Part shown: positions 6,153 to 22,763 of the stretch, in pieces
Layout of the letters: every line of letters starts with the position of its first letter
Numbering within the stretch: position 1 is the first letter of the stretch
Source: Promethearchaeota archaeon Loki_b31
Lineage (GTDB): Archaea; Asgardarchaeota; Lokiarchaeia; Sigyniarchaeales; SOKP01
Assembly (NCBI GenBank): GCA_005222975.1
Contig: NJBI01000016.1
Coordinates: forward strand, 1-55,734
Length of the DNA stretch: 55,734 nucleotides
Direction of reading: 5' to 3'
Translations under genes and position numbers: made by a program
The notes under the pieces: generated by a model
The model's input: only the letters and a program-made list of their open reading frames with translations
Told to the model about the DNA's origin: nothing
Databases searched by the model: none

Positions 6153-6176
6153 AATAAATCGTTAGTAAAGAGAAAA

Positions 6177-7190
6177 TTAGGGTATTATTGGATTTCCTTC
6201 TAACTTATACTTCACGAGAGTCAACGCTCCCATTACGCCGATAGCATCCAAAAATTTTGTTACTTTTATTTTTGGAGGGTGATTTATCGTAAATAATACG
6301 GGGTCTGTATTGAATTGTTCAATAACGGGAGGTAAAATTAAATCGTGATCTTTCATCATAGCTCCACCAAAGTATATCGAAGTACAATCGTAATAATTGT
6401 TTACGAGTCCAACTCCCACTTTAATATAAAATATACACTGCTCTATAACACTCTTAGAAAATTTATCTCCTCCTCTTTTTGCTTGAAAAATTTCTTTCGC
6501 CGTAATCTTAGACTCGTCGTTATCAATCATGTACATCAAAATTTTAGAGCTCAACTTAGTTGTTTTTATCGCGTCTAATGCTAAGTTTTTAACTCCTGTA
6601 GCAGAACTATATACTTCCCAACACCCATAAGCACCACAATTACATTGAAAATTACTCTGTCGATTAACAATCCCATGCCCGATTTCTGCAGCATTCCCAT
6701 CCTTTCCGAGAAGTAAATGCCCGTTACAAATAACTCCACCACCAATTCCCGTCGACACTGTTATATAAACTAGATTATCTTTTTCATCGTCACTTGCTTC
6801 AAAATAATGTACCCCTAAAACCGATGCGTTGCCATCATTAATTAAATAGATCGGGACTCCTGGAAATCTTTCTTGAATTGGTTTTTTTAGCGGTATTTCT
6901 TTAAAACCTAAGTTAGCATTATTGAAAACTTCGCCAGTTTCTGCATCTAAAGGACCGGCTGATGCTAGACCAATACCTAAAACTTGTTCTTTATCAATAT
7001 TGTTTTCAATTAACAACTGCGTAATTAAGGAAATTACTGTATTGCTGATTGAAAACTCGTTATCTTTAGGTGTTTGGGCAACTTTAGTTATTATATTTTC
7101 TTCCTTTAAATCAGAGGTACATAGAGAGACTCGAATCCATGTACCTCCAATATCCGCCCCAACGATAAATTCCTTTATTATTATCACCAA
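6177..7190 (-). CDS. ROK-family sugar kinase (glucokinase-like)
   Basis: DIGGT, NDGNA, STGIGGG, EIGH and CNCGAYGCWE; the true start may be ATA at 7178-7184. Confidence 0.92.
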   Translation of the reverse strand: MVIIIKEFIVGADIGGTWIRVSLCTSDLKEENIITKVAQTPKDNEFSISNTVISLITQLLIENNIDKEQVLGIGLASAGPLDAETGEVFNNANLGFKEIPLKKPIQERFPGVPIYLINDGNASVLGVHYFEASDDEKDNLVYITVSTGIGGGVICNGHLLLGKDGNAAEIGHGIVNRQSNFQCNCGAYGCWEVYSSATGVKNLALDAIKTTKLSSKILMYMIDNDESKITAKEIFQAKRGGDKFSKSVIEQCIFYIKVGVGLVNNYYDCTSIYFGGAMMKDHDLILPPVIEQFNTDPVLFTINHPPKIKVTKFLDAIGVMGALTLVKYKLEGNPIIP

Positions 7191-7207
7191 TTATATTTGT
7201 TCAAAAC

Positions 7208-8008
7208 TTAATAATAATTTATCTCTATTAAATCATTTTTGATTATTTCTTTAAAAATCTTTACGATCTCTTTTTTTCTCTTTTTATCAATTGCGTATAC
7301 AAAGTATTCTGAAGGTATTCTTGCGATTGAATATAATTGTACAATATCGGGTTTAATTTTTTTTATCGCATAAGCTAATTGCTCAATATTTTCTTTATTA
7401 TCATTGGAAATAAAATCTTCTCTGTAAGAATTATAAATTAAACATTGAATTGCTAATTTCTTATTTTGCATATCTTTTCTCAATTTAACAAGCGATTCAA
7501 CAATAGTGTTAACATCTGGACTATCTTTATGTGGTCTATTGGTGTTTGTAAAGTCGTTTTCAGTAGCGGCGTCTAATTTTGCTAATACAAGATCAAAGTG
7601 TTTTACTCTTTCTCGAACTTCGCTTGAATAAAGAGTACTTGAATTAGTAAAAAGCGTAATAAGAGGAGGTTCGTTGGTCCATTTCAAATCTCTTCTAACA
7701 TCTAAAGTAATAGAGTAAAAATCTAATAAATTTTCGTTGAGCGTAGGCTCACCTTGATATCCTGTAAAGCTTAAACTTTTTAAATGGGGGACATATTTTA
7801 ATATATCTTTAAGTTCTCTTCTAAAGTTAAACGACGGCGGAGCATTAATTCTATATTCTGGAGAAACTAAGTTTTCTTTATTTGTTGCGCCGATCTCACA
7901 ATAGACACAATCATAAGAACAAACTTTATAATTTAACAGTATATTTATTCCCAATGAGAGACCTAAGCGTCTTGACTGGAAAGGTCCATAGGTATATTTT
8001 CTAGGCAT
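7208..8008 (-). CDS. Radical SAM Fe-S protein (YGP.xSRRLGxSLG family); intact copy, probably chimeric
   Basis: CSYDCVYC cluster motif, GEPTL, TNSSTL, KLDA; its first 54 codons have a diverged duplicate at 16764-16918. Confidence 0.88.
   Translation of the reverse strand: MPRKYTYGPFQSRRLGLSLGINILLNYKVCSYDCVYCEIGATNKENLVSPEYRINAPPSFNFRRELKDILKYVPHLKSLSFTGYQGEPTLNENLLDFYSITLDVRRDLKWTNEPPLITLFTNSSTLYSSEVRERVKHFDLVLAKLDAATENDFTNTNRPHKDSPDVNTIVESLVKLRKDMQNKKLAIQCLIYNSYREDFISNDNKENIEQLAYAIKKIKPDIVQLYSIARIPSEYFVYAIDKKRKKEIVKIFKEIIKNDLIEINYY
7848..7869. repeat. Left junction direct repeat of island 1
   Basis: ATTCTATATTCTGGAGAAACTA matches 16764-16785 at 21/22 nt, with the first 14 nt identical. Confidence 0.8.
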
Positions 8009-8117
8009 GGGATACGGATTTGCGAAATACTATTAATTAGATCAAACTATTTATCATAATCTATTTATCCTAAAAAATTTTGCTTGTAGGCAATATGAAT
8101 TTAGCTTTTTATATAAC

Positions 8118-9503
8118 TCATCCATTTTCCGCCAAATACTGTTTTTTAAAATCGTTATATGTTTCAATCTCGAAGTGATCATCAAAAAATTGTCGAATTT
8201 ATGAGGAATTCATTCCGAAAAAGAGTCTTTGACTAACTCTAGTATGATTATGAGCTGTGGACTTGCTCCAACCATACTTATGATAAATTGAGCTAAAAGA
8301 TTCATAACATTTAATTTCTTTAATTATAAGTGGTATAACTAATTCTTTTCTAGCTTCTTCCCATGTCGAAAAACCTAATTGATTATATATTTGTCTTTGT
8401 AAGGCATATCGGTAATAAGGTTTTTTATATTCATGTAAATATTTCTCAATTCTTAAATCATTAAGGGCTACGTTTTGTTTTAGGTACTTAATAATTAATT
8501 TTTTTAGAAGACTTGCTGGAATACTTAATTTTGTTACTCCTTCCCAACCATCAAGTTTTCCTATAACTGGTAAATTAAGAATGTTTTCTGTATCAACAAG
8601 ATATTTCAATTTTTGATATGATTTACCACCAAACAATGTTTCAATATATTTTCGAGTGAAACGATTAAAAACATTATTTATTTCATGAAGTTCAAAATGA
8701 TTTTTTAATAACAGATAAAAGACAGGTCTTAAAAATTTTATTTGAGCTTCTTCAAATGATCCCCAAAATTGATTAATTCTCCTTCTAACTGTAGACACAC
8801 TGCATACTATACCATGTTTTTTTAGTTTTCTTTGAATTTCAGTTTCCATATCGCCTAATGCTATATAATAAGCAATTGCTATCATTGGTAGATTCATTTT
8901 ACTCACCCCTCCTCCCCCTCCTGTATTTATATTAAGACCAGAACTTGTCAGATTATGTTCTGAAATGTAATCAATTTCTCCAGATCTTAAAGAATTTGAG
9001 GAAAAATGGATTTCTACAGGTGTTCTTGTAAATCTTGAATTTAATATACCAAAAATTAATCTCCAATTATAATTTTCATTGACTTTAAGATTCTCAAAAC
9101 CAACTTGATTTAATATGTTATAAATTAATCTATGGAGTTTCCCTCCTTCACCATGTTTAAAAACAGCTTTATAAACATAAGACATCCATCGAGAATTCAT
9201 CGTATCTGTTGTAAATCCCGCAATGGTTTCACCCTTAGATTTGTCAGATTTTATTTCAGTTATCTCATATACTAAACCATACCATAGATATTTCCCTCTT
9301 GAATTAACAATTCTTTCAAATTTGGAAATATCTTCAAAATCAGATCTTTTAAAACTAAACTCTCCGCTCAAGCGTAGTTGCTTAGGTTTAAATCCTAATT
9401 CCTTGAATGCCCTTAAAATCTCCTTTTTATAGCTCTCAGAAGTGATTTTTGCATATTTTCTAAGAAATTGTTTTCCAAATTTTAATTTCTGCGTTAGGCA
9501 CAT
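8118..9503 (-). CDS. Putative GIY-YIG-like endonuclease with C-terminal HTH/helical repeats (in-frame TAA at 8199-8201)
   Basis: GLVYEI...TIAGFTT...RW..Y, E..YI, GLNINTGGGG; HTH-like CSVSTVRRRI; repeats such as WGSFEEAQIKFLRP and WEEARKELVIP; the frame continues 26 codons past the TAA. Confidence 0.6.
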
Positions 9504-9873
9504 TCATATCTTCTTTTTGTTCATTAGAATCTTCTTTTTCTGATCGTTCTTTGGGTTTATATTTGTCAAATTCTTCGATAATAAACTTTTGGATTTCTTT
9601 CAATAAGTTGGGATAAAAAAGGTTTAATTGTCTTAAAGTTTTTAACGATTTGAATAATCCACCACTTGAAGTTAATATTTTATGCGTGTTATCTTTGTCA
9701 ATTTCAGTTATTGGCAGATTATCTAAAAGAATTTTAGCTATATTCTTTTTATAGTCAAAATTAATTTCAAATCTATCAAAATCCTTTTCTAGTTCCTTTC
9801 CTATTTGATTAGGTATTTCTTTAATATCATTTTTTACCATTATACTTCCCCCGATTTGAACTTGGGTTATCAT
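9460..9873 (-). CDS. Hypothetical protein; possibly the N-terminal part of the GIY-YIG-like protein via a +1 frameshift
   Basis: 44-nt overlap with the downstream ORF in the +1 frame. Confidence 0.55.
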   Translation of the reverse strand: MITQVQIGGSIMVKNDIKEIPNQIGKELEKDFDRFEINFDYKKNIAKILLDNLPITEIDKDNTHKILTSSGGLFKSLKTLRQLNLFYPNLLKEIQKFIIEEFDKYKPKERSEKEDSNEQKEDMNVPNAEIKIWKTIS

Positions 9874-10012
9874 ATTTAATTCCTTTCGATTTAAAGTAAA
9901 AATCGATACATTTTCTTATATATGTCGCAATCGTTTCATTTGTATTGCATAAATCTTTAATCTTGTTAATCAGACTTAGCGATATTCTTACTCGGATCGT
10001 CACTTTTTCCAA
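9827..10012 (-). CDS. Ribbon-helix-helix (CopG-like) protein
   Basis: Alternating beta strand (VTIRVRIS) followed by two helices (TIATYIRKCI). Confidence 0.6.
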   Translation of the reverse strand: MEKVTIRVRISLSLINKIKDLCNTNETIATYIRKCIDFYFKSKGIKYDNPSSNRGKYNGKK

Positions 10013-10142
10013 TTGTAATTCCCTCTTTTTCTAATTTTTCTTTAACTAGCTTGTGAATCCATTTAGAAATATTTAGACAGTGCTCCTCTGTGTATTTCCT
10101 TAGAGCTTCATCAATCTTTTCTTTTAAGTGTATTGCTGTCAT
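9966..10142 (-). CDS. Ribbon-helix-helix protein (58 aa, not in ORF track)
   Basis: Translated by hand: MTAIHLKEKIDEALRKYTEEHCLNISKWIHKLVKEKLEKEG... Confidence 0.6.
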   Translation of the reverse strand: MTAIHLKEKIDEALRKYTEEHCLNISKWIHKLVKEKLEKEGITIGKSDDPSKNIAKSD

Positions 10143-10640
10143 AATTTTAACCTTTTTGTTTATAGGAATAAAAATAATTTTTTTATCCTTACTATACTAT
10201 AGCAAGATTTTTGGATTTGGGTATATTTGTACTTTTTAAAACTTTTTTATCTCCAATAATATTACTAGGAGAATTATTATTTAAATCTTTACAATTCTAT
10301 CAATTTGACGATTAGAAAAGTATTTAATTATTAATCTGCTCGATGTTTTACAGGTTTTTGATGCAGGAAATTGTCGATAGGGAAATATGTGATAGATGCG
10401 TACTTTTGCATACTTTGTTTACAAAAAAATATATTTGTATATATTTCTCAATTGGGAAATAGGGAAATTTTAACAATTTAGTCAAAAACATGTCAAAAAG
10501 TCTAAAATTCGATTGCAAAAGAGTGGAATTAGTTAATCTTCTTCCTTTTTTATCGCGTTTTAAACGATTTTATCAAATCCCACTAAAAACCCATTATGAG
10601 TAGAGTTATAACTGAATTATATGTTATTATATACTTGGCT

Positions 10641-10663
10641 AACGTGTAAATTTTAATCACGTT
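10641..10663. promoter_or_regulatory. Palindromic operator candidate
   Basis: AACGTG-N11-CACGTT; its left part recurs as TAACGTGTCAAATTTTAA at 13228-13245. Confidence 0.4.
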
Positions 10664-10730
10664 CTATAAATTTAAATTAAAAACATATAAATAATAAAAA
10701 GAAAAAAATAAAAATCGAAATGAGGGAAAA

Positions 10731-11954
10731 ATGTATAATAAAAAATTAAGAATCTCAGTAATAATAATAATAAGTTTATTATTAGTAGGCACAAATATTG
10801 TTTCTATTGCAAACGCGGCCGTTCCAACTACATCTTCTTCTGACGTTTTATTTGTACAACTAGGGGATGATTCTATAATTGAAGAAACTACTCAAATAAT
10901 AATGGATAATCTAAATGACAGAAACGAACATTTGTTACAAGAACTTGAAAAACAGGAGATGGAAGAATATGTTGAAAAATTATACGGAATGATTGGTACA
11001 ACTTCTGATATTAATTTTGGTCAACTAAATATTATTGGTCCCCGTATTCTCGATATCAATGTGATTCAAATATCCGTTGAAAGCCTTGAAAATGGAATTC
11101 TGGAGAGTTATAAGACTCAAGTACTGATAATAATAGGGCATGGAAGTGAAGAAGGTCTCATAGGTGAAAATGATAAAATACTTTGGGACGATATTAAGAA
11201 AATAATTACAGATAATTCTGCGAAATATTCGATAATTGCATCCTGTTATAGTGAAAGAGCAACAAAAGATCTTCCGAATGCTATTGGTTTTCCGAATATC
11301 ATAGATGGAATTGTTGCAGCTAACATTGTTTCAGCAATACTTTTTAAAATGTTGGAAGAGACAACTTTAATGAAAAATTGTCTTAATAATGCACTTAAGC
11401 GCTATATGTATATCAGTATTAATCCTAAATCTGCTCAAATTTTGGAACTTGACCCTGGAGGTCCAGGTGGTGGTGGTGGTTCTCCTCCTCCTCCTTCAGG
11501 TCAGTACTTTAGTGATATGGAGATTGAATATTACATTATTGCATTTATAATTTTAATTTTTGCATCGACGATAAATGCAGTGATACCTGCAGACGCTTCT
11601 TGGGCAATAAAACTCTTTAGCGCTTTTAGTGTCATTGGAGTAGGGAGCTATATTTTTAATTTCGCTCTTTACGCAGCTGGTCTGATGACAGAGGCAGCCA
11701 TGTTGTCTAGTTTAGTGGGCTTTTTCAATGTGATGTTAGCGGCACTAATTAATCTTTTTTACATAGTAGATCCGTTTGAGCTAAGTTGTATGATCATTGT
11801 ATTTGGGGTGGGAGCACTTTTGACGATAATTGAACTTCTTGCATCAGGAGGTACTCTTGTAGTTGCAAAATTTTGTCTTATGGCAATAGCATTTGTTTCA
11901 TTAGGATTAGCTTGTTATTTTGATTGGTTGGATTCTGATGGCATTGTAGGTTAA
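10731..11954 (+). CDS. Secreted protein: signal peptide, clan CD-like (GHG...SC) protease domain, Gly/Pro linker and hydrophobic C-terminal domain
   Basis: MYNKKLRISVIIIISLLLVG...ANA signal; VLIIIGHG (His137) and IIASCYS (Cys172); PGGPGGGGGSPPPPSG linker; ~150-aa Ala/Gly/Leu-rich helical tail. Confidence 0.7.
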   Translation: MYNKKLRISVIIIISLLLVGTNIVSIANAAVPTTSSSDVLFVQLGDDSIIEETTQIIMDNLNDRNEHLLQELEKQEMEEYVEKLYGMIGTTSDINFGQLNIIGPRILDINVIQISVESLENGILESYKTQVLIIIGHGSEEGLIGENDKILWDDIKKIITDNSAKYSIIASCYSERATKDLPNAIGFPNIIDGIVAANIVSAILFKMLEETTLMKNCLNNALKRYMYISINPKSAQILELDPGGPGGGGGSPPPPSGQYFSDMEIEYYIIAFIILIFASTINAVIPADASWAIKLFSAFSVIGVGSYIFNFALYAAGLMTEAAMLSSLVGFFNVMLAALINLFYIVDPFELSCMIIVFGVGALLTIIELLASGGTLVVAKFCLMAIAFVSLGLACYFDWLDSDGIVG

Positions 11955-12033
11955 AATAATACTCTAACTATTTTTTTTTTCTAAAGTTTTATTACGAATT
12001 AATCTTAAAATAATCATAAAGGAGAGGATAATT

Positions 12034-13143
12034 ATAAACAATAATTCTAAAAAAACTCAAGATTACTATATTGAGATAAAAAATAACATTAGTGTCTCGA
12101 AAAATGGTATAGTCGGAAAGATTTTTGTTGGAATTATGTTTACATTTTTTCTAACCATTTTTTCAGTCACGGCATATTCAAATATCTTTTTTGCCGTTCC
12201 AACTTATGCTAAAATGTTAACTATACTTGGAACCGGATTTTTATTTGTAAATATTGTATTCGATAAAGCAGAAGCTATCTTATATTGGAAAGATCCGGGA
12301 AAAAGACCCGTGATTTTGAATATAAAGATGAAACAATCGTTCATTGAGACCATAGTTGTATTTTTTGTTAATTTTATTATTATTATACTTTCCCAATTTT
12401 TAGGATTATTAAATTTTATATATGAACGTGAAGGGATGAAATATTTTATTTCTTATTATCAACCACCCCTCTTTGAAACAGTATTAATTGCCATAATTAC
12501 AACTCTATCGTTTTTCGTCATATGGACATCTATGTATTGGTGTGTAAGTAGATTCCTTCAAATTAAAAATTATTCACACGATTTCAAAAAATTTGATATA
12601 AAAAGATTAGGTATTTTTTTTGGTGGAATGATTTTATTAATAATTTTTTGGGTTGTTCTTTATATACCGGATATGTTATATAAAGAGGTTAAAGTGAATG
12701 GGGACTTCAGTGGTATATTATTTTTTAAAGAATTTGCTCAAAAAGATTATCTTAGGATATTGACGGCGGAGATATTTATTCTTATTGGCTTAAATCTATT
12801 ATTCTATTTTCTAGGTGATAAAAATTTGAGCGAAAGAGATGATTTTGTTCTATTGGAGAAGGAAAACAGTGAGATTAAAAGTAAAAAAGAAAAATACCAA
12901 AAAAGAGCGATCGAAAAACGTTTTATAATAGCAATGTTTGAAATTATAATAGTAACGCTAATTTTTATGCCTTTATTTTTTATATTCGCGTTATTCTATT
13001 CAACAATTGGATCTATTTTAATTTCCGTTCCCTATTTTCTTATGTTAGGAACTATAATTGTCGTATTTATTTTATATGGCGCTATACTGACTGGGAGGAT
13101 TTCGATAATTAAATCAAAATCGAGACAAAGTATCGAAAGTTAA
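12034..13143 (+). CDS. Multi-pass membrane protein (candidate immunity/partner protein)
   Basis: About 8-9 hydrophobic segments. The frame is open from 11968, and AAGGAGAGG at ~12019 precedes ATA/ATT codons; the first ATG is at 12136. Confidence 0.7.
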   Translation: MNNNSKKTQDYYIEIKNNISVSKNGIVGKIFVGIMFTFFLTIFSVTAYSNIFFAVPTYAKMLTILGTGFLFVNIVFDKAEAILYWKDPGKRPVILNIKMKQSFIETIVVFFVNFIIIILSQFLGLLNFIYEREGMKYFISYYQPPLFETVLIAIITTLSFFVIWTSMYWCVSRFLQIKNYSHDFKKFDIKRLGIFFGGMILLIIFWVVLYIPDMLYKEVKVNGDFSGILFFKEFAQKDYLRILTAEIFILIGLNLLFYFLGDKNLSERDDFVLLEKENSEIKSKKEKYQKRAIEKRFIIAMFEIIIVTLIFMPLFFIFALFYSTIGSILISVPYFLMLGTIIVVFILYGAILTGRISIIKSKSRQSIES

Positions 13144-13266
13144 ATGCAATAAATCAAAGAATTTTAGAAGTAATCTTTTTTTTCTAACTCTATAAATCAT
13201 TAAATCGTTAAAACCAACAAGTACATATAACGTGTCAAATTTTAAACAATTCAAAAACTTTAAACA

Positions 13267-13338
13267 TGGGGGAGGATTAAAACGATACGTTCAGGAATGA
13301 TTGCCATCTGATGTATGTGTCAACCTAATCCTTTCCCA
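13267..13338 (+). other. 72-nt hairpin 1 followed by a T-tract
   Basis: TGGGGGAGGATTA/TAATCCTTTCCCA outer stem (two G-U pairs); inner ATACG/TGTAT and TCAG/CTGA; then CCTTTTTTAAATT. Confidence 0.65.
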
Positions 13339-13410
13339 CCTTTTTTAAATTACAAATATTCGAACGTTTAAAAGAAAAAATTAAAGATTTTGATAAGGAG
13401 ATTTAAGAAA

Positions 13411-13717
13411 ATGTTAGAATGTATCTTATGTGGGAAAATAATCGTTCAAAACGATAATCCTAAGCATTATAGCGTTTGTTCTAAGTGCGACGTAAACGAT
13501 TTAACCGAAGAACAAAAGAAATTCATAGAAATGGGAATAAATTACATAAAGTTAGGAAAAATCGTTAAAACAAAAAGCAATTCGCGATCTTTGCAATTTA
13601 CTCGACGATCTATATTTTTACGCTAAGGAATTAATCCCAAAGAATATGAAACATAACTTGAGTTTTAGAAAAGAAAAATTGAAAGAAGAAATCGAAACAA
13701 AAATAAATGAATTGTAA
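13411..13717 (+). pseudogene. Small Zn-finger protein with a +1 frameshift near 13570
   Basis: CILC...CSKC; the shifted frame reads AIRDLCNLLDDLYFYAKE...RKEKLKEEIETKINEL*, matching the C-terminus of 14145-14297. Confidence 0.55.
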
Positions 13718-13756
13718 GAAATTAATCGAAATTACAAATAAGGAGTGATTAAGAAA

Positions 13757-14029
13757 ATGAAAATAAATTTTTACAAGTACATGTTAATGACGATGGCTTT
13801 TCTCTTAGGTTTCCACTTGTATTACGTTGTTCAATACGAAGCCATATTTTTAAGATACATAAGTGAAAATCGTGATGAGCTCGTATATATAACGCTAATG
13901 AGACTAGAAATGAGTTTCCAACACATAATAACTTTTATGTTCTGTGTGGCATTACTCGTTATAGCTATCGTCTTGTACCTTGCAGAGTTTTACGCTTGTA
14001 AGTACATTAAAAGCAAGAGGGCAGTTTAA
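13757..14029 (+). CDS. Small two-TM membrane protein
   Basis: Two hydrophobic segments; AAGGAGTGA RBS upstream. Confidence 0.6.
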   Translation: MKINFYKYMLMTMAFLLGFHLYYVVQYEAIFLRYISENRDELVYITLMRLEMSFQHIITFMFCVALLVIAIVLYLAEFYACKYIKSKRAV

Positions 14030-14037
14030 ACTAATAT

Positions 14038-14109
14038 GGGGATTTTGAGAAGGGATAGGGTTTGATTCTCTCAGCCCCCAACATGGTTATCTACTTCTTA
14101 AAAATCCCC
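14038..14109 (+). other. 72-nt hairpin 2 followed by a T-tract
   Basis: GGGGATTTTGAGAAG/CTTCTTAAAAATCCCC outer stem; then TCTTTTTTAAATT. Confidence 0.65.
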
Positions 14110-14144
14110 TCTTTTTTAAATTAAAAAAATGAGCGTGATAAAAA

Positions 14145-14297
14145 ATGAAAAAACTAAAGTTTGATAAAAAAGGGTTTCTAATACTTCAAAAATTAAATTA
14201 TGAAATACAACACAACGATAGAACCAAAGATTTAATTGATAATATTAAAAAAGAAAAACTGAAAGGGGAAATCGAAACTAAAATAATGAAATTGTAA
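14145..14297 (+). CDS. 50-aa protein ending KEKLKGEIETKIMKL (not in ORF track)
   Basis: Translated by hand; shares its C-terminal motif with 13411-13717 and 14675-14809. Confidence 0.55.
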   Translation: MKKLKFDKKGFLILQKLNYEIQHNDRTKDLIDNIKKEKLKGEIETKIMKL

Positions 14298-14313
14298 ACA
14301 ACAAATAAAGGAC

Positions 14314-14508
14314 ATGATAAAAGAAATGAAATACTGCATAAATTGTAAGCTAATAGTACAACCTAAAAAGGATTTTAATTTATGTGCTTTTCTTTTTCTT
14401 GCTTTGTTGGGTAGTTTTTGGATATATATAATATATTATGTTTTGAAGTCTAAGAAATGTCCTATATGTAATAGCACTAATTGGGGGGGCAATTATTTAA
14501 ATCTCTAA
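14314..14508 (+). CDS. LITAF-like zinc-ribbon membrane protein
   Basis: CINC-hydrophobic hairpin-CPIC; likely start ATG 14326. Confidence 0.6.
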   Translation: MIKEMKYCINCKLIVQPKKDFNLCAFLFLALLGSFWIYIIYYVLKSKKCPICNSTNWGGNYLNL

Positions 14509-14549
14509 TCAGTTCGATTAGAAAGAATAACGCTAACCCTTTTATTCTC

Positions 14550-14620
14550 GGAGATGCGAGCACTCATTTATGTCTTTTGAAACTTTTACCCTCTCTAACC
14601 CTTTCATTTCTCGCATCTCC
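14550..14620 (+). other. 71-nt hairpin 3 followed by a T-tract
   Basis: Perfect 11-bp stem GGAGATGCGAG/CTCGCATCTCC; then ACACTTTTT. Confidence 0.65.
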
Positions 14621-14674
14621 ACACTTTTTATTTTTACGTTCATTTTAATTAATCTAATGTTAGATGTGTAAAAA

Positions 14675-14809
14675 ATGCCATATAATTGGAAAATAGAATC
14701 TCAAGAACTAAGAAAAGAAAAAAATCGTTTGTTAGATAAGTTAAAAGAGTTAAAACGATCTTATGAGAAATTTAAAAAGGAATTCGAAACAATATTAAAT
14801 AAAAAGTGA
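14675..14809 (+). CDS. 44-aa coiled-coil peptide (not in ORF track)
   Basis: MPYNWKIESQELRKEKNRLLDKLKELKRSYEKFKKEFETILNKK. Confidence 0.5.
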   Translation: MPYNWKIESQELRKEKNRLLDKLKELKRSYEKFKKEFETILNKK

Positions 14810-14952
14810 AAAACGTTCAAATTTGCTAAAATGGATTCTATGGGTATTTTATTGATAAAATTATAAATTGTCGGTAAAAATACGGCAGTTTAATTATAAT
14901 AAATATTTCACAAAGTATTTAAAGAAAAAATGAAAAATTTCTTTACTAGAAT

Positions 14953-15579
14953 TTAAAGAAACAAGGGAAGGCAAGTTGTAAATCCCGCTATTAATCCCGT
15001 TACGATGCCAGTAATTAGATAGATTATTGATTTTTTTGTATTCATTCCTTACTTATTAATTATCTGCCATAGACTTATTGTAATCGTCAAGAGAGCTAGA
15101 AACGAGAAAATACCCATTCCATAGTATGTAGTTTTCTCGTAAGGATACACTGTCTTACTTATATCCGAAATGCTATTCGTAGCAAATGGATCGATTATAC
15201 CTGAAAGAGAGATAAAATTAAAAATGAGTCGATCTGGTAGTGGGTCTAAAACGACAAGCAAGAAGTATGTGAACCAATCGAGCAGAATTCCAAACGCAAA
15301 GACTATGTATGATGACCCCAGAATCATGCGAGGCTTTGTCATAGGATTGTCTCCTAATTTTTGTTCCTTGCTGTATCTTATTCTTTCTAAAAAGTATTTA
15401 CCTCTTAAACTTAATAAGGTTAAAATCCCGATAATTAAGAGTATCGCAAAAAAGATGTATTTAATATACCCAAAAAACAATTCAATAAATGAATTAATCT
15501 CGATAAACAGACCGTCAAGGTTGGGTAAAAATGGGTCAATTATACTTAAAAATTTTACACGAAAAAGATAGGTGATCAT
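14953..15579 (-). CDS. Hypothetical membrane protein with in-frame TAA at 15049-15051
   Basis: The frame continues after the stop with another TM helix (GMNTKKSIIYLITGIVTGLIAGFTTCLPLFL*). Confidence 0.6.
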
Positions 15580-15623
15580 CTATATTACCTTTAAAATCAC
15601 CTATTTAAATTCTACAGATTAAC

Positions 15624-15962
15624 TTATTTTTTCACTGCAAGATCTTTTCTCGAACTTATGTTTTCCTTAGTAATTATGAATTCATATATTCCAGCAGATA
15701 CGCCTAGAAGTAGAACATATATATTGCTTAGAATTATGTTAAATACTGGAACATCAAAAATATCTATAAATAGATACGGAATAGAATCTAGAATAAAAAC
15801 AGTGATACTTGATATCAAAAGAAATCTACTAACTATAACCCATGTTGAGACTTTGCGATTTCTATGACGAAAGATTAAGACAACAATATTTAAAATATAC
15901 AATCCTATTAACCAACCAAGAAAAACTAGATAAAAGAGCTCTGAATCTAAATAACCAATCAT
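15624..15962 (-). CDS. Hypothetical three-TM membrane protein
   Basis: Three hydrophobic helices, 112 aa. Confidence 0.65.
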   Translation of the reverse strand: MIGYLDSELFYLVFLGWLIGLYILNIVVLIFRHRNRKVSTWVIVSRFLLISSITVFILDSIPYLFIDIFDVPVFNIILSNIYVLLLGVSAGIYEFIITKENISSRKDLAVKK

Positions 15963-16099
15963 TATATTATTACTGAGAAAAAGTCATATAAACTCCTAAC
16001 TTTTTAATCTAAGATTTAAAAAAAAAAATTTAAGAGACATATTTATCTAATGTTTCTAAAGTTTTCACAGCTATACTTGATGAGATCTTAGTCATTACA

Positions 16100-16375
16100 A
16101 TGATACCCTTAACTGAAGATCCTGAAAAATGCATAATTTTAGGATTATTCAATAACATAATAGGAAAAGGGGTATATTTTGAAAGCAGTTTGATATGGTT
16201 GGATAAATGTATAGATCAAAAACGCAACGAATTTGATGATTTTACAAGGGAACCAGCTCTAACTTATGGAAATAGTACAGATCAGTACTTTAACACTTAT
16301 TTGATGATTATGTTTAAAATAATCTCTATCCAAAAGATTTCAGTAGATCACCCTGTATTAGGTAAACTAACCTAA
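16100..16375 (+). CDS. Hypothetical ORF or gene fragment
   Basis: Open frame only, no recognised motif. Confidence 0.25.
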   Translation: MIPLTEDPEKCIILGLFNNIIGKGVYFESSLIWLDKCIDQKRNEFDDFTREPALTYGNSTDQYFNTYLMIMFKIISIQKISVDHPVLGKLT

Positions 16376-16521
16376 TTGAGATTAATCATGTTTAATGAGA
16401 TATTAATAAATAAGAATAAAACAAACAAAAATTGTTATTAATCTAATTTTAGTAATAAAGATAAATTAATTTGTATTAAGAAAATTAATCCAAGAATAGA
16501 TAAGAAAAAAGATGAAATTTC

Positions 16522-16763
16522 ATGTCTAAAAAGACGGAAAGTTATGTACATAAAGAAAAAAAGCGTAAAAATAACCCTGAAGTAGGATTATCAGTATATG
16601 ATAAAGAATTCCCAAGAAAATCCAAATATGATATGATCCGTATTTAGATCCTCAATTAATTTGGACAAATAAATCAGAGAAAACTTCATTCGAAGTTCCA
16701 ATTGTATCACTATTAACTCAAGAAAAAATTAATCCAAAACAAATAATTACCAACACGATATAG
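16522..16763 (+). pseudogene. Truncated N-terminus of an adenine DNA methyltransferase (type III Mod-like family)
   Basis: MSKKTESYVHKEKKRKNNPEVGL...[1-nt deletion ~16631][39 protein letters not shown]; ends exactly at the island junction. Confidence 0.7.
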
Positions 16764-16785
16764 ATTCTATATTCTGGGGAAACTA
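16764..16785. repeat. Right junction direct repeat of island 1
   Basis: ATTCTATATTCTGGGGAAACTA. Confidence 0.8.
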
Positions 16786-16918
16786 CTTCTTTAGTAGGGC
16801 CTATTTCACAATATACGCAATTGTAGGTGCATAATTTATTTTTTGGTAGAATATCTATTCCTAACGAGAGCCCTAGCCGTCTTGATCGAAATGGACCATA
16901 AGTGTATTGACGTGGCAT
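16764..16918 (-). pseudogene. Displaced native 5' fragment (52 codons) of the radical SAM gene
   Basis: 41/54 aa identical to the start of 7208-8008; homology stops after VSPEYRI; begins 10 nt after the hydrolase stop, i.e. at an operonic position. Confidence 0.88.
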
Positions 16919-16928
16919 GTGATTATTC

Positions 16929-17693
16929 TTAATTAAAATAATTAATGATAAAATTCTCTATCGATTTATTGACCTCACTTGGTTTTTCTAACATAACCAT
17001 GTGTCCAGCATCGTTTATTATGTTTAAATCTGAATTCTTAATTTTATCGAGAAAAAATTGCGAAAATTTAACCGGCGTCATCTTATCTTGTTTCCCTACG
17101 ATAATTAGGCATGGAACTTCAATACTATCTGTTTTATCTATGGTATCAAAGTTATCGCAAATTTTAAAATCTTCATATGTGACTTCTGCCGTAATTTTCG
17201 AAGTTTCTTGAACATAATTATCTATTAATTCTCTTGGTGTTTTTCTATAGAATATCCCATCGGGTAAAGAGTCTAAAAACTCTTGGTAATTGGATCTTAA
17301 AGAGTTTAGGATAATTGGGGCAACTCTTAACCTTCCCCCGGTGCCACATAAAATTAAACCTGAGATTTCTTTAGGGTATGTAAAATAATATTGTTGAGTA
17401 ATAGCTCCTCCCAAAGAATGTCCACATAATATTACATTGTCATAGTTTAAAGATTTAATTAGGTGCCGAATTACATCGACATACAAATCGAGATTTAGCT
17501 CCGAAAATTCATTTGAATTGTTATGGGAAGGTAAATCGATAGCGATAAGATCGTAATTAACTTCAAGATCGAATTGATTTTTCCAAGTATTTGAACTTCC
17601 TCCTGAGCCGTGTATAAAAATAATTACATTTTTACTTTCGGTTTCTTTAATCCGATAAAAGATCTTCTTCTCTTTATAACTCAAGAAAGGCAT
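16929..17693 (-). CDS. Alpha/beta hydrolase
   Basis: FIHGSG, GHSLGG nucleophile elbow, GKQD, AGH. Confidence 0.93.
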
Positions 17694-17789
17694 TATTTTT
17701 TGTTGAAATTATTATTTAATCTAATTAATAATAACTGAAAAGAAGAATTTAATTTAGTTTTTTCACTTAAGAAATAAAAAAAATTAAAG

Positions 17790-20330
17790 TTATTGATTGT
17801 TAATTTCAATATCTCGGCGTTGCATTTCTAAAAGACGATAATATTTACCGTTTAAAGCTAATAAACTTTCATGGTCCCCTTGTTCTACGATTCCATGTTT
17901 ATCAGAACCTAGAACGATAATCTGATCTGCATTCTTTATCGTTGATAAGCGGTGTGCGATGATAATGGTGGTACGACCCTTGCGAGCTTTATTTAAAGCA
18001 TCTTGGATCAAAGTCTCGGTGTATGGGTCCACAGAAGAAGTTGCCTCGTCTAAAATCAAGATTTTAGGGTCAGTAATTAGAGCTCGAGCAAAAGCAATTA
18101 ATTGACGTTGTCCTATAGAAATGTTAGACCCATTTTCTTTTAATTTTTTATCGTATTTCTTGTTTAAACTCTCAACAAAATTGTGTAATCCTAAGAATTT
18201 AGAAACTTCAATCATCTTATTTTCGATTTCAGAGGTGGGATTATCAATACCATAGAGTAAATTCTCTTTGATCGTTCCCGTAAAAAGAAAGGCATCCTGA
18301 GGAACAAATCCTATTAATCCTCGTAAGTCCTTTTTGTTTACTTTCCGAATATCGATCCCATCAATAAGTATTTTTCCGCTATTTACATCGTAAAATCGAG
18401 AGAGAAGTTTTACTAAAGTTGTTTTTCCTGCTCCTGTCTCACCAGCAATCGCTAAAGTAGCACCAGGAGGAACCTTGAAGCTTAAGTCTTTTAACACGTA
18501 ACCTTTAGATTGTTGGTGTCTAAGTAAAATCTTTTTTTCTTCTATAGCATCTTTCACTACTTTTGGAATCTTATTTGAGATCTCCGGAGGAATTGATATG
18601 CTGGCAAGAGATTCGAGGATTGCTTGAGGAGACATCTGCATAGCGCCACCACTCATTAGTCCTTGACTGTCTCCTCCCATTCCACCACTAGTTGGTTGTT
18701 TAAAACCTGATTTTGAGCGAAGTATTTTTTCTAAGTTTTTAACCATCATTTCGATCATTTTGGGAGGAATTAATTGCCCCATTGACGATAGATCTTTTGA
18801 AGGTCTGCCTTTCTTTAGATCGCTATCTTTACTTTTAAAGGATGTCCCATATTCAGGATGTTTTTCTGCTAAATCTGTATTTGGAACGGCATAATGGTAT
18901 TCGTCTAAAATTTCGTCAATTATCTTAGGAGCGTCCTCGGGCTTAACTCCCATTAAGCTCATGAACAATTTCTGTCGAATATTTTGAGGCATGTACATGC
19001 TGTTTTTAAGTAAGAAAGAGGAATATGGTTCCGGGAAAGTTTTCATCATTTCTATTGCTTTTTTAATCATTGGATTTTGCAACATGAATTTTCCTGCGTC
19101 AGGTGCTTGAGATCCAGATGTAATTTCGGGTGATTGTTTTCCCTTATTATTATCTAAAACATAGCCAAAACTAACGTTAATAAACTCAATATTTCCTTTA
19201 GGTTCGGAAAATGTTTTCGCACTTATTGGCTCAGGTATTTCTACGCTCTCTTCCAACACAGATAATATTCGATCTGAAGCTGCCAAAGCGCTCCCTATAA
19301 TCTGTTGCATTTGTAATAACATCATAAAAGGGCGGAAAAATTGAGAGAGTAACGAAATAAAGGCAACTAGAACTCCAACCGAAATTGTTATACCAAAAAC
19401 ATTAATTTCTCCAATTGCGATAAAACCTCCAAGTAATAGTATAATCACTGTGAGAACCGTAACTATTAAGGTAAATAGAGGGAAAATTGTAGCCATAATT
19501 CTTCTAATCTTAACCATTATCTTATAATTAGCTGTATTTGCTTGATCAAATTCGGAAGATGCTCTTTCTTCTTGCCCATATGCTTTTACTATCCTAGCTC
19601 CTGCAATATTCTCTTGAATCGAAGTTGTAACTTGACCAATAGTTTCTCTAGCCTTCTTAAAAACACCTATTATAATTTTTTGAATAAATATTGCCATAGC
19701 AAAAAATATAGGAATTATTATCAAGCTGATTAAGGCTAAATAGATGTTGAGCAAGAACATAATTAATATAGTAATACCAATGGATACAATATTGGTTATT
19801 ATCTGTACAAATTGCCCTCCTACTAGTAAGTTTAGTTGAGTAACGTCGTTAGTTGTAATTGAGATTATATCTCCTGATGGACGTTGATCAAAATAATTAA
19901 GAGACATGTCTTGCAATTTAAAAAAGAGATCATTTCTTACTTCGTATGTAACTTTTTGCGATATTTTTCCCATTCCATATTGAGAAATATAAGTCGTGCT
20001 TGCCATGAAGACGAGTAGGCTTAAAAACACTACACTCATGATTATTACGTGATATGGATCCCTTGCTACAATCCCATTATCTATTATAGTCGCAGTAACT
20101 AGTGGACTTATGGTTAAAATCATGGTCCCTAATAAGAGAAATATAGTATACAACACAAATTTCCATTTAAACGATTTTAGATATGAAAGCATCCATTTCA
20201 ACAGAATCTTGCTAGGATGTTCTAAGTCTTGTTTACTTTCTCCAAACGAGCCATGCCGATGAAAACCTAAAGATGGCTGATTGATTTTTTTTTCTTCGCT
20301 TTTATCTTTCTTTTCTTCTGCATTACTCAT
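17790..20330 (-). CDS. ABC exporter (TMD+NBD) with a ~220-aa insert in the NBD
   Basis: Six-TM domain, GETGAGKT, ISIGQRQ, ILDEATS, IAHRL. Confidence 0.93.
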   Translation of the reverse strand: MSNAEEKKDKSEEKKINQPSLGFHRHGSFGESKQDLEHPSKILLKWMLSYLKSFKWKFVLYTIFLLLGTMILTISPLVTATIIDNGIVARDPYHVIIMSVVFLSLLVFMASTTYISQYGMGKISQKVTYEVRNDLFFKLQDMSLNYFDQRPSGDIISITTNDVTQLNLLVGGQFVQIITNIVSIGITILIMFLLNIYLALISLIIIPIFFAMAIFIQKIIIGVFKKARETIGQVTTSIQENIAGARIVKAYGQEERASSEFDQANTANYKIMVKIRRIMATIFPLFTLIVTVLTVIILLLGGFIAIGEINVFGITISVGVLVAFISLLSQFFRPFMMLLQMQQIIGSALAASDRILSVLEESVEIPEPISAKTFSEPKGNIEFINVSFGYVLDNNKGKQSPEITSGSQAPDAGKFMLQNPMIKKAIEMMKTFPEPYSSFLLKNSMYMPQNIRQKLFMSLMGVKPEDAPKIIDEILDEYHYAVPNTDLAEKHPEYGTSFKSKDSDLKKGRPSKDLSSMGQLIPPKMIEMMVKNLEKILRSKSGFKQPTSGGMGGDSQGLMSGGAMQMSPQAILESLASISIPPEISNKIPKVVKDAIEEKKILLRHQQSKGYVLKDLSFKVPPGATLAIAGETGAGKTTLVKLLSRFYDVNSGKILIDGIDIRKVNKKDLRGLIGFVPQDAFLFTGTIKENLLYGIDNPTSEIENKMIEVSKFLGLHNFVESLNKKYDKKLKENGSNISIGQRQLIAFARALITDPKILILDEATSSVDPYTETLIQDALNKARKGRTTIIIAHRLSTIKNADQIIVLGSDKHGIVEQGDHESLLALNGKYYRLLEMQRRDIEINNQ

Positions 20331-22114
20331 GGAAGATCTCCTTTTTTACTATTATTTTGTTTAAAATCTGGTAATGACTTTTGTTTGTAATATAATGTTT
20401 CATAAATTTGTCTATATAACACATTAGTTTTAATTAAATCATCGTGAACACCAAAACCTATTACCCTTCCTTTATCTAAAACTAATATCTTATCAGCATT
20501 ACGAATGGTCGAAATTCGTTGAGTAATAATGAAAGTTGTAGTTCCCTTAGTGATTTTTTCTAATCCTTTTTGAATTTCAAATTCGGTCTCAACATCTACA
20601 GAACTGGTAGAATCGTCAAATATTAGAATTTTTGGCTTTATAATTAACGCACGAGCAATAGAAAGACGTTGTTTTTGACCCCCTGACAGCCTTGTACCAC
20701 GTTCACCTACTATAGTATCGTATTCTTTTGGTAAAGAAATGATAAAATCATGTAAATTGGCAATTTTAGCCGCTTCAATTATTTCTTCCATAGTTGCGTT
20801 TTCTTTGCCATACGAAATATTATCAGCAATGCTCTTATTGAACAAAAATGTTTCTTGAGAGACAATCCCAACATTTTTCCTTAAATCTTGTAGACGATAC
20901 TTTCGGATATCTTCTTGATCAATTTTGATTACCCCATCATTTACTTCATAAAACCGAGGAATTAAATTGATAATTGTAGATTTTCCAGAGCCTGTCGTTC
21001 CGAGGATTGCTAATTTTTTTCCAGAAGCAATATTAAATGACACATTTTTTAAAATCCTATGGTCAGAAATGTAACCAAAAGAAACGTTTTCAAATTCTAC
21101 ATCGCCTTTCAAATGTTCAATCGGGGCTGCGTCTGGTAAATCTTTAACTTCTGGAGTTGATTCTAAAACATCTCTCACGCGAGTTAAAGCCGCATCGGCT
21201 TGAATGTACATCAACATAATTTGTCCTAACATAACTAAAGGGAATCCAAGAGTCGCGATAAACGATTGTAAAGTAATCAAGGTAGCTAACGCCATTACCC
21301 CTTCTATTACCCAAATTCCACCAACTAATAATGTGAATACGGTCATGAAGCCAATAATTATGTATATGCTTGGCATATAGAGTGAATTCAATTTTACTGA
21401 ACGAACGCTAGCTTTATAAAACCGCTCATTGTTTTTAGAAAATTTTTGAAGTTCTTTACCTTGAGTATTAAACATCCTTACTACTTGAGCACCTACTATA
21501 TTTTCTCTAATTGTATTAGTTAATTCCCCAAAACTATTCCGAGTCTCTAAAAATATTGGTTTTAACTTTTTAGCAAGATAATATGATAATAAAAGAGAAC
21601 TTCCAATGGCTATTGATAATAACCAAGATAATTCTATGCTAAAAAGAATGAACCCGATAGTGACCCCTCCTAATTGGAGAATGGATCTAAGTCCTAAAGT
21701 TAGCCCCATACCAAAGATTTGTTCGCTTTCTTCCACATCACTTGTAGCTCGTGAAATTAATTGACCCGTCTCAGTTTTATCAAAATAAGAAAAAGATTGA
21801 CGAGAAATGGCGTTATTGATATCCGTGCGAAGATAATAAACTGCTCTTGAGGAAACTTCAGCGCCTCTTAATCGCGCGGCTCTTTCCAATATAAAGGCTA
21901 GAAAACCAAACATAAGAATTAAGCTAAATGAAATAATTAGCTCACTAGCATTAGAAAGCACTGAAAGATTCGGATCTAAACCACCAATCATTCTTCCTAT
22001 TAATATTGGGACGATTACTAAAAACAGCGTAGACATTAATAAATAGATTATTTCAAGAATGAAATCCTTCTTAGATTTCATCCAATATTTTAAAATCATT
22101 TTAAATGTATTCAT
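20327..22114 (-). CDS. ABC exporter (TMD+NBD), degenerate-site partner of a heterodimer
   Basis: GTTGSGKS, LSGGQ, IFDDSTS and TQR (non-canonical Walker B/H-switch). Confidence 0.94.
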   Translation of the reverse strand: MNTFKMILKYWMKSKKDFILEIIYLLMSTLFLVIVPILIGRMIGGLDPNLSVLSNASELIISFSLILMFGFLAFILERAARLRGAEVSSRAVYYLRTDINNAISRQSFSYFDKTETGQLISRATSDVEESEQIFGMGLTLGLRSILQLGGVTIGFILFSIELSWLLSIAIGSSLLLSYYLAKKLKPIFLETRNSFGELTNTIRENIVGAQVVRMFNTQGKELQKFSKNNERFYKASVRSVKLNSLYMPSIYIIIGFMTVFTLLVGGIWVIEGVMALATLITLQSFIATLGFPLVMLGQIMLMYIQADAALTRVRDVLESTPEVKDLPDAAPIEHLKGDVEFENVSFGYISDHRILKNVSFNIASGKKLAILGTTGSGKSTIINLIPRFYEVNDGVIKIDQEDIRKYRLQDLRKNVGIVSQETFLFNKSIADNISYGKENATMEEIIEAAKIANLHDFIISLPKEYDTIVGERGTRLSGGQKQRLSIARALIIKPKILIFDDSTSSVDVETEFEIQKGLEKITKGTTTFIITQRISTIRNADKILVLDKGRVIGFGVHDDLIKTNVLYRQIYETLYYKQKSLPDFKQNNSKKGDLP

Positions 22115-22698
22115 ACTACTTTTTTCTCCTCCTCTGAGTTTTTATCAATCGCTTTATTTTTTAATTGTGAGATTACTTCCTCAATTTTCTGATATTGTTT
22201 GTTAAATCGGTTAATTTTTTGCGAAAGTTTCAATTTGTGAAACTCTAATAATTTTAATTTCTCCTCGTCGGATTTTTCTTCAAGTTTTTCGAAAAAGAAG
22301 TTAAATGGCCCATATTTTGGAAAAAAATGTCCTGATAATTCCTTATCTGAGCCTATAGTTGCCGCTATTAGTGTTTCTATTGACTCATTAATTATTTGTT
22401 GCTTTTCAACCATTAATTTTAGTGTTTCTTCTCCTTTTTTTGTTACTTCGTAAATTTTCCTAGTTCTTCCTTCTTCTTGTTGCTCTATGTATTTAATTAA
22501 GCCATTTTTAGTCATTTCCTTAAGCACTGTATACATTGTAGATGCGGGAGGGGTCCATATTCCGAGAGTTCGGTTAGTTATATCTTTGCTAATTTTATAA
22601 CCGTATGAAGGGTTCTTCTCGAGAATTAACAATATAAGCGCGCTAATGAAGCCTTTTTTCATTGCTTTTTCAAAATTCTTTGTAATTTCTTCAACCAT
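22111..22698 (-). CDS. PadR-family transcriptional regulator
   Basis: ILLIL..PSYGYKI...STMYTVL...RKIYEVTKKG. Confidence 0.9.
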   Translation of the reverse strand: MVEEITKNFEKAMKKGFISALILLILEKNPSYGYKISKDITNRTLGIWTPPASTMYTVLKEMTKNGLIKYIEQQEEGRTRKIYEVTKKGEETLKLMVEKQQIINESIETLIAATIGSDKELSGHFFPKYGPFNFFFEKLEEKSDEEKLKLLEFHKLKLSQKINRFNKQYQKIEEVISQLKNKAIDKNSEEEKKVV

Positions 22699-22763
22699 CC
22701 TATTAAACCTTCAAAAAAGTTGTTTATAAGAAAATATAAATTATATAATATCTCACTTATGGA

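Follow-up and report, generated by a model that had tools for sequence, protein, structure and literature searches.

Long hairpins followed by T-runs in a small-gene array of a lokiarchaeial chromosome: candidate 3'-end and boundary modules

Organization of the array

The window analyzed here is a stretch of 55,734 nucleotides (nt) from Promethearchaeota archaeon Loki_b31 (assembly GCA_005222975.1, contig NJBI01000016.1), which is contig C44 of a metagenome-assembled genome (MAG) of 3.5 Mb with approximately 30% GC and 92% completeness. Within it, three long hairpins (hp1, hp2 and hp3) alternate on the + strand with small genes in the order hp1, A1, B1, hp2, A2, B2, hp3, A3, right boundary. 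We tentatively propose from the sequence, with somewhat less than even confidence, that the hairpins act in cis as structured RNA modules of the gene-sense strand, which would form the 3' end or insulator of one transcription unit and are fused to the promoter of the next. In the following, G000 denotes the source genome (with contigs C14, C59, C81 and others), G017 denotes another genome of the same genus (a MAG of Promethearchaeota archaeon isolate 33X4), and the L labels denote contigs or stretches used for comparison, of which L065 is from NCBI assembly GCA_019057935.1 and L060 is a JGI contig.

The array lies within a segment of about 8009-16717 that has a radical-SAM gene on one side and a duplicate of the 5' end of this gene on the other, a duplication that is confirmed in the window. 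A pair of genes encoding 407 and 335 amino acids (aa) is located upstream of hp1 and is present in several other chromosomal contexts, mostly without the array, which indicates that the array is an add-on to this pair and not a part of it. Homology with the other copies of the upstream 335-aa gene stops at 13147-13202, and the left flank of the array and hp1 (13210..13266, + strand) begins with AAAACCAACAAGTAC and carries a TTTAAAC motif right before the hairpin. The string AAAACCAACAAGTAC is unique in the genome, and the same flank precedes a related hairpin, hp5, in L066. At the other end, the right boundary (14806..14900, + strand) reads GTGAAAAACGTTCAAA ... CGGCAGTTTAA, a string that is also unique in the genome, and this block likewise ends the arrays of L066 (6657-6745) and L065 (from 3351).

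Structure and rarity of the hairpins

An earlier note on this DNA had placed hairpins of 72, 72 and 71 nt at 13267, 14038 and 14550. These positions are exact, five or six T residues follow each hairpin, and the folds are much more stable than those of shuffled sequences. The hairpin hp1 (13267-13338, + strand) consists of a 13-bp outer stem with a G-rich 5' arm, a C-rich 3' arm and two G-U pairs, followed by a 4x4 internal loop and the inner helix GAUAC/GUGUC; its 46-nt interior folds further and extends the helix (minimum free energy (MFE) -28, z-score -3.9 against shuffles). The 15-bp outer stem of hp2 (14038-14109, + strand) contains one bulged A and encloses a Y-shaped interior with the inner helices GAUA/UAUC and GGGUU/AGCCC and a small third hairpin (MFE -28.3, z-score -3.2). 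In hp3 (14550-14620, + strand), 11 perfect pairs enclose a 49-nt pyrimidine-rich loop that is largely unstructured, and ACAC and T5 come next (MFE -18.3, z-score -6.2). The outer ends of the hairpins read GGGG.../...CCCC or GGAG.../...CTCC. The T-runs are located 2-4 nt past the hairpins (13341-13346, 14112-14117 and 14625-14629), and each is followed by an AAATTA-type box and then by a Shine-Dalgarno sequence and ATG.

The rarity of this design was assessed by scoring the best long-range stem upstream of each T-run (at least five T) on both strands of the whole genome, which amounts to 22,164 T-runs. With the design defined as a GC-rich stem with a 28-62-nt loop and then a T-run (stem score of at least 29 and at least 45% GC), six hairpins in the 3.5-Mb genome pass the cut-off; three of these are hp1-hp3, which lie within 1.4 kb on one strand; across the genome, the expected number of clusters of three within 1.4 kb is approximately 1e-6. 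In 5000-24000, canonical short terminator hairpins show no enrichment (6 found versus 7.9 expected), which indicates that the long-hairpin design is special to the array and agrees with the published view that a U-tract, but no hairpin, is required in archaea (PMC8716108). A consensus scan for terminator hairpins with short loops (3-8 nt) reports none at the sites of hp1, hp2 and hp3, whose interiors span 41-49 nt. The region itself is AT-rich and contains many weak inverted repeats.

A further hairpin of the hp3 design is found at G000:C59:10643-10704 (- strand), where a perfect 12-bp stem closes a pyrimidine-rich loop of 38 nt that is poor in G, and AGC and a long T-run follow. This hairpin is intergenic, between genes that are LOG-like and glycosyltransferase-like as named from their translations alone, and may mark a wider class of stem-closed CU-loop RNAs.

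Copies in other loci

Sequence-based and protein-guided searches give 11 copies of the hairpins in total, those of the window included (four of hp1, two of hp2, three of hp3 and two of hp5). Homologues of hp1 are located at G000:C14:61247-61324 (96%), G017:C1:9566-9646 (75%) and L060:6118-6188, the homologue of hp2 at L065:2668-2740, and those of hp3 at C14:61513-61586 and L065:3122-3196; the related hairpin hp5 has a length of 61-63 nt, occurs in L065 and L066, and has flank and end sequences in common with hp1. Each type occurs once or twice per genome (in the source genome, hp1 twice, hp2 once and hp3 twice), and the z-scores of the homologue folds range from -3.2 to -4.9. All 11 copies have at least four T residues within 7 nt of the 3' arm, are in the orientation of the genes and are followed by TATA-like and Shine-Dalgarno/ATG signals. 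At every copy, the borders of homology around the hairpin block are sharp and the flanks are unrelated. Upstream of hp1, the conservation spans only 8-17 nt, and the hp2 block extends from 36 nt upstream of the hairpin to ATG+8, beyond which the genes differ; the 36-nt upstream part is what remains of the 3' end of gene B1.

In C14, hp1 is directly preceded by another structure of approximately 70 nt with the terminal stem UAUGGCG...CGCCAUA (G000:C14:61148-61224; L028:11148-11224), with a marginal z-score of -1.8 and without a T-run of its own.

Outside these loci, the hairpins are scarce. Of 42 genomes of the genus, only G000 and G017 yielded hp1, no other species genome among 135 of the family yielded hp2 or hp3, and the matches of BLAST with hp1, hp2, hp3 and the right boundary against these 42-135 species genomes are limited to G017 and low-complexity noise. 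When the source genome and 151 genomes of the order are searched with a covariance model of hp1, it finds the hp1 copies and three borderline matches, which were set aside: one (G034:C39) has the string TAATCCTTTCCCACC without a T-run, and the other two look like chance. Exact-pattern scans retrieve nothing from the viral collection, only G017 from the species genomes, and from the metagenomes one chance eukaryote-like match and one strain copy, the metagenome contig L026, which is nearly identical to window 12361-15526. Relative to the window, L026 lacks 63 bp (15120-15182) within a minus-strand 176-aa membrane open reading frame (ORF; 15049-15579).

Conservation of the pairing

Comparison of hp2 in the window with its homologue in L065 reveals that all 25 of the 25 pairs form in both sequences; four pairs are changed (U-A to A-U, U-G to C-G, G-U to A-U and U-A to U-G) and all of them still pair, whereas approximately 60% of the positions in the unpaired interior differ. 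The hp3 stem of C14 and L065 differs from that of the window by two compensatory flips (U-A to A-U and C-G to G-C) and one terminal pair, and the loops are about 75-80% identical. Overall, the changes in the stems all preserve pairing (three double compensatory changes and G-U-compatible single changes), whereas the loops diverge by about 25-60%. The outer stems of hp1 and hp2 are wholesale different and both pair, and the interior of hp1 in G017 resembles that of hp2 (CCCCAACRTG); this intermediate, hp2-like interior indicates that hp1 and hp2 are homologous. The equal length of the hairpins, to which the earlier note had drawn attention, finds no support as a designed feature, given this homology, the 61-63 nt of hp5 and the 23-nt hairpin at the hp2 position in G017.

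The non-Watson-Crick pairs are G-U pairs on the + (gene-sense) strand, and the + strand is more stable than the - strand by 1-9 kcal/mol for hp1, hp2 and hp5 (4-9 for hp1), whereas the hp3 stem is symmetric. These patterns suggest that the pairing is under selection, with a modest statistical weight, because the stems of hp1 hardly differ between copies and a shuffle control on only two rows of hp2 carries no information.

Leaders, joints and mosaic loci

The signals that follow the hairpins are part of the conserved blocks. After hp1, the T-run and TATA-like start (13341..13358, + strand) consist of T6 and then AAATTACAAATA, which is a 12-nt direct repeat of 13729-13740, such that AAATTACAAATA occurs twice in the window, after hp1 (13347) and at the A1/B1 junction (13729). 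The second copy belongs to the inter-cistronic leader (13729..13756, + strand), AAATTACAAATAAGGAGTGAT, which carries an extended Shine-Dalgarno sequence before B1; equivalent leaders are present in G017, L065 and L068. The ACAAATAA(A)GGA leaders described in the earlier note are indeed present and contain this extended Shine-Dalgarno sequence, GGAG(G)TGAT, as GGAGTGAT in the window and GGAGGTGAT in L065 and L068. After hp2, the block at 14112..14149 (+ strand) comprises T6, AAATTAAAAA (TATA-like), GAGCGTGAT (Shine-Dalgarno-like) and the ATG of A2, and 37 nt of it (14113-14149) are 100% identical to G017:C1:9148-9184. In G017, a plain 8-bp hairpin (23 nt) and T5 occupy the hp2 position before this identical leader, and a different gene follows it.

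The order of genes and blocks varies among the loci. L065 contains A1, a 143-aa gene, a B2-like gene, hp2, an 80-aa gene, hp3, hp5 and the right boundary; C14 contains hp1, one ORF and hp3; G017 contains hp1, a winged-helix gene, the 23-nt hairpin, the identical 37-nt leader and two other genes; and the end of L066 consists of a 7-codon B1 remnant, hp5 and the right boundary. The order of hp2 and then hp3 is kept in the window and L065, with different genes between them. In C14, hp1 is joined via AAATTACAAATA directly to an AGGAGTG leader, and this locus looks like the product of a deletion between two copies of AAATTACAAATA. Joints are thus found in or beside the blocks (the AAATTACAAATA repeat, the leader identical in G017 and the end of the hp2 block at ATG+8) and also within ORFs, namely at the A1 break near 13547 and in the remnants of B1. 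In light of the changed genes between kept landmarks, the truncated or fused A1 variants and the deletion-like arrangement of C14, the array is best read as a recombination mosaic in which the non-coding blocks outlast the genes. L061 was considered as an empty-site comparison; its hydrolase is unrelated, so it is unusable.

Genes of the array

A1 (13411..13717, + strand) is a zinc-ribbon small-protein gene with a frameshift near 13560; its intact relatives encode 101 aa and end in FRKEKLKGEIETKI(NEL/MKL). In comparison with these homologues, A1 has a 1-nt insertion in an A-rich run (13555-13570), and the frameshift is probably real because it is also present in the independent metagenome contig L026. 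The gene could be a pseudogene, and a programmed shift is less likely. Truncated or fused A1 variants are common among the loci. The N-terminal 176 nt are 97% identical to G000:C81:10068-10243 (L029), where they are fused in frame to an MttB-like C-terminal fragment, which we take, from its translation alone, to be the C-terminal part of an MttB-type methyltransferase; a recombination scar and an assembly chimera at the contig end are the two explanations for this fusion.

B1 (13757..14029, + strand) encodes a 90-aa small membrane protein without a family match, and its relatives are a homologue at the end of L068, the remnant of 7 codons in L066 and, in L065, a remnant of the 3' end that is located upstream of hp2. 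A2 (14145..14297, + strand) is a 50-aa ORF whose last 17 codons are the A1 tail, and its start codon is ATG in the window and ATA (lost) in the strain variant L026. B2 (14326..14508, + strand) encodes a 60-aa CxxC...CxxC membrane protein, and its homologue in L065 (102 aa) is located upstream of hp2, not hp3. A3 (14675..14809, + strand) is a 44-aa K/E-rich ORF with a tail weakly like that of A1 and with no family above threshold. Searches of the island and array proteins against Pfam and PHROGs yield only weak zinc-ribbon, winged-helix and ribbon-helix-helix hints, and no relatives of A1 or of the 143-aa array protein are found in the viral contig collection.

The earlier note had proposed that the first ORF after each hairpin ends in a shared motif that may serve as a docking tail. 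The sharing holds for units 1 and 2, where 13665-13717 and 14245-14297 are 85% identical over 53 nt, the only two occurrences in the genome. In unit 3, the likeness of the A3 tail to the A1 tail is weak (approximately 76% over 42 A-rich bases in an alignment by eye), and BLAST did not report the match. The ORF of unit 1 reaches the tail only via the frameshift, as the intact homologues have 101 aa. The docking role finds no support: in A2, a different ORF has received a copy of the A1-family 3' end along with the leader that follows it, which indicates that the shared tail is a recombination joint.

A proposed cis-acting role at the 3' end

The structure of the hairpins, its conservation and strand bias, the fixed orientation, the T-run, the mosaic joints and the rarity in the genome are the observations to be explained. 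We infer that each hairpin would close one short transcription unit of this accessory micro-gene array: RNA polymerase would transcribe the approximately 70-nt hairpin and stop at the T-run, and the 3' end of the resulting transcript would be locked in a long stable helix, which would shield it from 3' exonucleases and insulate the unit from read-through. The same T-run merges into the TATA-like AAATTA box and Shine-Dalgarno leader, which would start the next unit. These terminator/promoter/leader blocks recur both within the array and in other arrays, and for this reason they may also act as joints for homologous or short-homology recombination, which would swap, delete or truncate the genes in between.

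The presence in G017 of a plain 8-bp hairpin and T5 before the identical leader points to a terminator-type role at the hp2 joint, and this hairpin swap is the best single argument for a role at the 3' end. Among the functions listed in the earlier note, a termination or processing signal fits best, and its view of the array as modular agrees with the persistence of the hairpins as structured modules while the intervening genes vary by locus.

Several points weigh against this explanation. Archaeal termination is generally held to need only a U-tract, with no strict requirement for a hairpin (PMC8716108), and a 70-nt hairpin would therefore be more than termination alone requires. A T8 run is already present at the gene upstream of hp1, approximately 80 nt before this hairpin. 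The loop of hp3 is conserved though unstructured, which hints at a sequence-specific partner that the model leaves unexplained, and the TTTAAAC motif 2-14 nt upstream of hp1 and hp2 is not accounted for either. Additionally, the covariation comes from few sequences, with the nearly invariant stems of hp1 and the two-row control of hp2 described above.

Alternative explanations

The main alternative, possible but doubtful, is that the hairpins are stand-alone small RNA (sRNA) genes of approximately 70 nt, whose transcripts would run from the GGGG/GGAG of the 5' arm to the U-run, with both ends paired. Their trans-acting role would be that of a regulator, of a decoy or of a partner to the small proteins of the array. 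There is room for such RNAs because the hairpin should be dispensable for archaeal termination, and the modules behave as discrete units: their homology ends sharply amid unrelated flanks, and they remain intact while the adjacent ORFs are frameshifted, truncated or deprived of a start codon. The conserved loop of hp3 and the similar intergenic hairpin in C59, with its stem-closed pyrimidine-rich loop and U-run, are also in keeping with an sRNA. TATA-like strings are found at about -25 to -35 of hp1 (window and G017), hp2 and hp3 (C14); however, a reading of the flanks by eye reveals no promoter-like box at a constant distance upstream of the hairpins, and none for hp1 of C14, hp5 of L066 or hp3 of the window. 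The short conservation upstream of hp1 and the derivation of the 36 nt upstream of hp2 from B1 likewise speak against a dedicated sRNA promoter. Rfam 15 gives no match at the gathering score in the window, and the matches with E of at most 10 in 13150-14750 are chance-level only. No convincing conserved target pairing is seen: the hp3 loop matches the start of B2 over 10 nt, but this candidate pairing with a start region was rejected because C14 does not retain it. Among described RNA types, ARAGORN finds no tRNA or tmRNA in the window, an eye check of hp1 against the consensus rules for the K-turn, C/D box, H/ACA and bulge-helix-bulge reveals no fit, and an analogy with Ro/Y RNA was set aside, the genome being without a TROVE protein.

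A more far-reaching reading, which we regard as unlikely, is that the hairpins are the selected portable core of an integrase-free Asgard cassette system, or trans-acting RNAs, kept intact while the surrounding genes decay. In its cassette form, the structured RNAs of approximately 70 nt (or their single-stranded DNA form) would delimit the units of expression and guide how micro-genes are captured, lost and reshuffled; in its trans-acting form, they would serve, for example, as decoys or partners of small zinc-ribbon proteins.

It is distinctly unlikely that the hairpins act at the DNA level, either as attC-like recombination sites that fold as single strands or as elements like miniature inverted-repeat transposable elements (MITEs), building the array by insertion and excision. 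The attC idea, which the earlier note had raised, is worth testing because archaeal integrons, mostly integrase-less arrays, are reported to be enriched in Asgard archaea (PMC9668308). Same-strand small ORFs are indeed punctuated here by hairpins of 61-75 nt, the modules are found in several unrelated contexts, and the gene content between hairpins differs among the loci. However, a regular-expression scan of 13000-15100 on both strands finds no RYYYAAC/GTTRRRY box pair, the stems are perfect or nearly so and lack the bulged bases and unpaired spacer of attC, and the hairpins follow pairs of ORFs rather than every ORF. The only PF00589 (tyrosine) recombinase match in the 92% complete genome is located on contig C63, with none in the window or beside the C14 array. 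A MITE family was rejected because there are one or two copies per type and genome, the arms differ between types, and the flanking AT-rich repeats are inconsistent across copies. Short AT-rich strings (TTTAAA and CTTTTATT) are present on both sides of hp1, hp2 and hp3, but these flanking strings double as T-run and TATA signals. All copies have a single orientation relative to the genes, and the joints are seen in leaders and inside ORFs, not at hairpin ends, which also disfavors a DNA-level role.

Ordinary terminators or chance palindromes without a special role are very improbable: the T-run after each hairpin and the weak inverted repeats of this AT-rich region would suit them, but the design is nearly unique in the genome and clustered here, canonical terminator hairpins are not enriched, and other genomes and metagenomes retain the hairpins with changes that preserve the pairing.

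Neighboring features and additional observations

Two CRISPR (clustered regularly interspaced short palindromic repeats) arrays lie on the contig of the second hairpin array (G000:C14:64184-64974 and 76548-77897), with a 37-nt repeat ending in ...AAGGATTGAAAT, and approximately 2.6 kb separate the C14 hairpin array from the start of the nearer one, which lies downstream of it. An 876-aa ORF (C14:67292-69922) beside the first CRISPR array has a Cas10-like look, with an HD motif recognized by eye. A third CRISPR array, with a palindromic repeat, is found at C19:22160-22476, and the spacer at C14:77547 matches C18:3668-3703 (92% over 36 nt). None of the 31 CRISPR spacers match the array loci. The possibility that hp1 mimics the CRISPR repeat was rejected: AAGGATT.AAA is common to hp1 and the C14 repeat, but the match covers only 9-10 of 12 bases and extends to nothing else.

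Window 13101-13202 and G000:C75:70417-70516 share a 102-nt patch with 97% identity, which covers the 3' end of the 335-aa membrane gene and the downstream T-run, while the coding sequence of this paralogue is otherwise much more diverged from the window; the patch suggests gene conversion between the paralogues. Next to the duplicated 5' end of the radical-SAM gene, window 8199-9503 (- strand) encodes a 434-aa ORFan without a Pfam or PHROG match, which has relatives in 29 of the 135 family genomes. In four other genomes, this gene directly adjoins the radical-SAM gene, and it may therefore be a resident gene rather than cargo of the island. The copies of the 434-aa gene region from other genomes were fetched and scanned, and none contain such hairpins. 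The genome-wide hairpin scan also reports TAAAATAGGGGGAGTAT...ATATTTCCCTATTTTA with a T-run at G000:C87:104981-105075, which resembles AAATAAAATAGGG/CCCTATTTTATTT in window 28850-29000, an element located upstream of a tetraether synthase gene; the C87 hairpin may be a second copy of this element.

Comparison with known systems

The feature is real and conserved, and we describe it as a boundary cassette with three to four previously undescribed structured elements that would operate as inferred above. The prevailing view has archaeal transcription units terminating at plain U-runs, and this stretch of the genome shows no excess of canonical hairpin terminators. The locus suggests how Asgard genomes may renew tiny genes via recombination at repeated regulatory blocks without a recognizable recombinase, and it provides three or four concrete RNA candidates that are absent from Rfam.

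The hairpins resemble bacterial intrinsic terminators in that the G/C-rich stem has a G-rich 5' arm and a C-rich 3' arm, a U-run follows, and both are placed in sense orientation where a transcription unit is predicted to end. Bacterial terminators are hairpins of 7-8 bp with short loops that abut the U-run (PMC8716108), whereas the stems here comprise 10-15 bp, the interiors 40-54 nt, and 2-4 nt separate the stem from the T-run; moreover, archaeal polymerases are not known to need a hairpin. With clusters of attC sites lacking integron-integrases (CALINs), the array has in common small same-strand ORFs punctuated by hairpin-forming sites with a structure that is more conserved than the sequence, and an integrase need not adjoin CALINs (PMC9668308). 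In contrast to attC, there are no R''/R' boxes, extrahelical bases or unpaired central spacer here, the only irregularity in the outer stems of 10-15 contiguous pairs being the bulged A in hp2; the sites do not correspond to the ORFs one to one, the conserved block includes the T-run and the putative promoter signals, and the genome contains no IntI.

The closest described analogue, which functionally resembles these blocks, appears to be the composite PeSL (promoter-early stem-loop) promoter/terminator cassettes in the hyperplastic regions of T4-type phages, which flank small novel ORFs and mediate modular shuffling (PMC2839356, PMC4122927). The PeSL sequences belong to bacteriophages and combine short stem-loops of one consensus with early promoters of the sigma-70 type, whereas the blocks described here reside in an Asgard archaeal chromosome and combine three or four unrelated hairpin sequences of 61-75 nt, with 25-50-nt interiors, with a TATA-like promoter, and recombination at the blocks is deduced here from the mosaics. 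In both systems, a repeated non-coding block consists of a stem-loop terminator and the next promoter (PMC2839356, PMC4122927), and every copy here comprises a hairpin, T4-8, an AAATTA-type box and Shine-Dalgarno/ATG, with the terminator and the promoter predicted from these letters. In both, the blocks also flank small ORFs of unknown function in a hypervariable region. The indels and replacements of the phage genomes map to the PeSL cassettes, which are points of exchange between otherwise unrelated sequences; here, several joints lie in or beside the blocks and others within ORFs.

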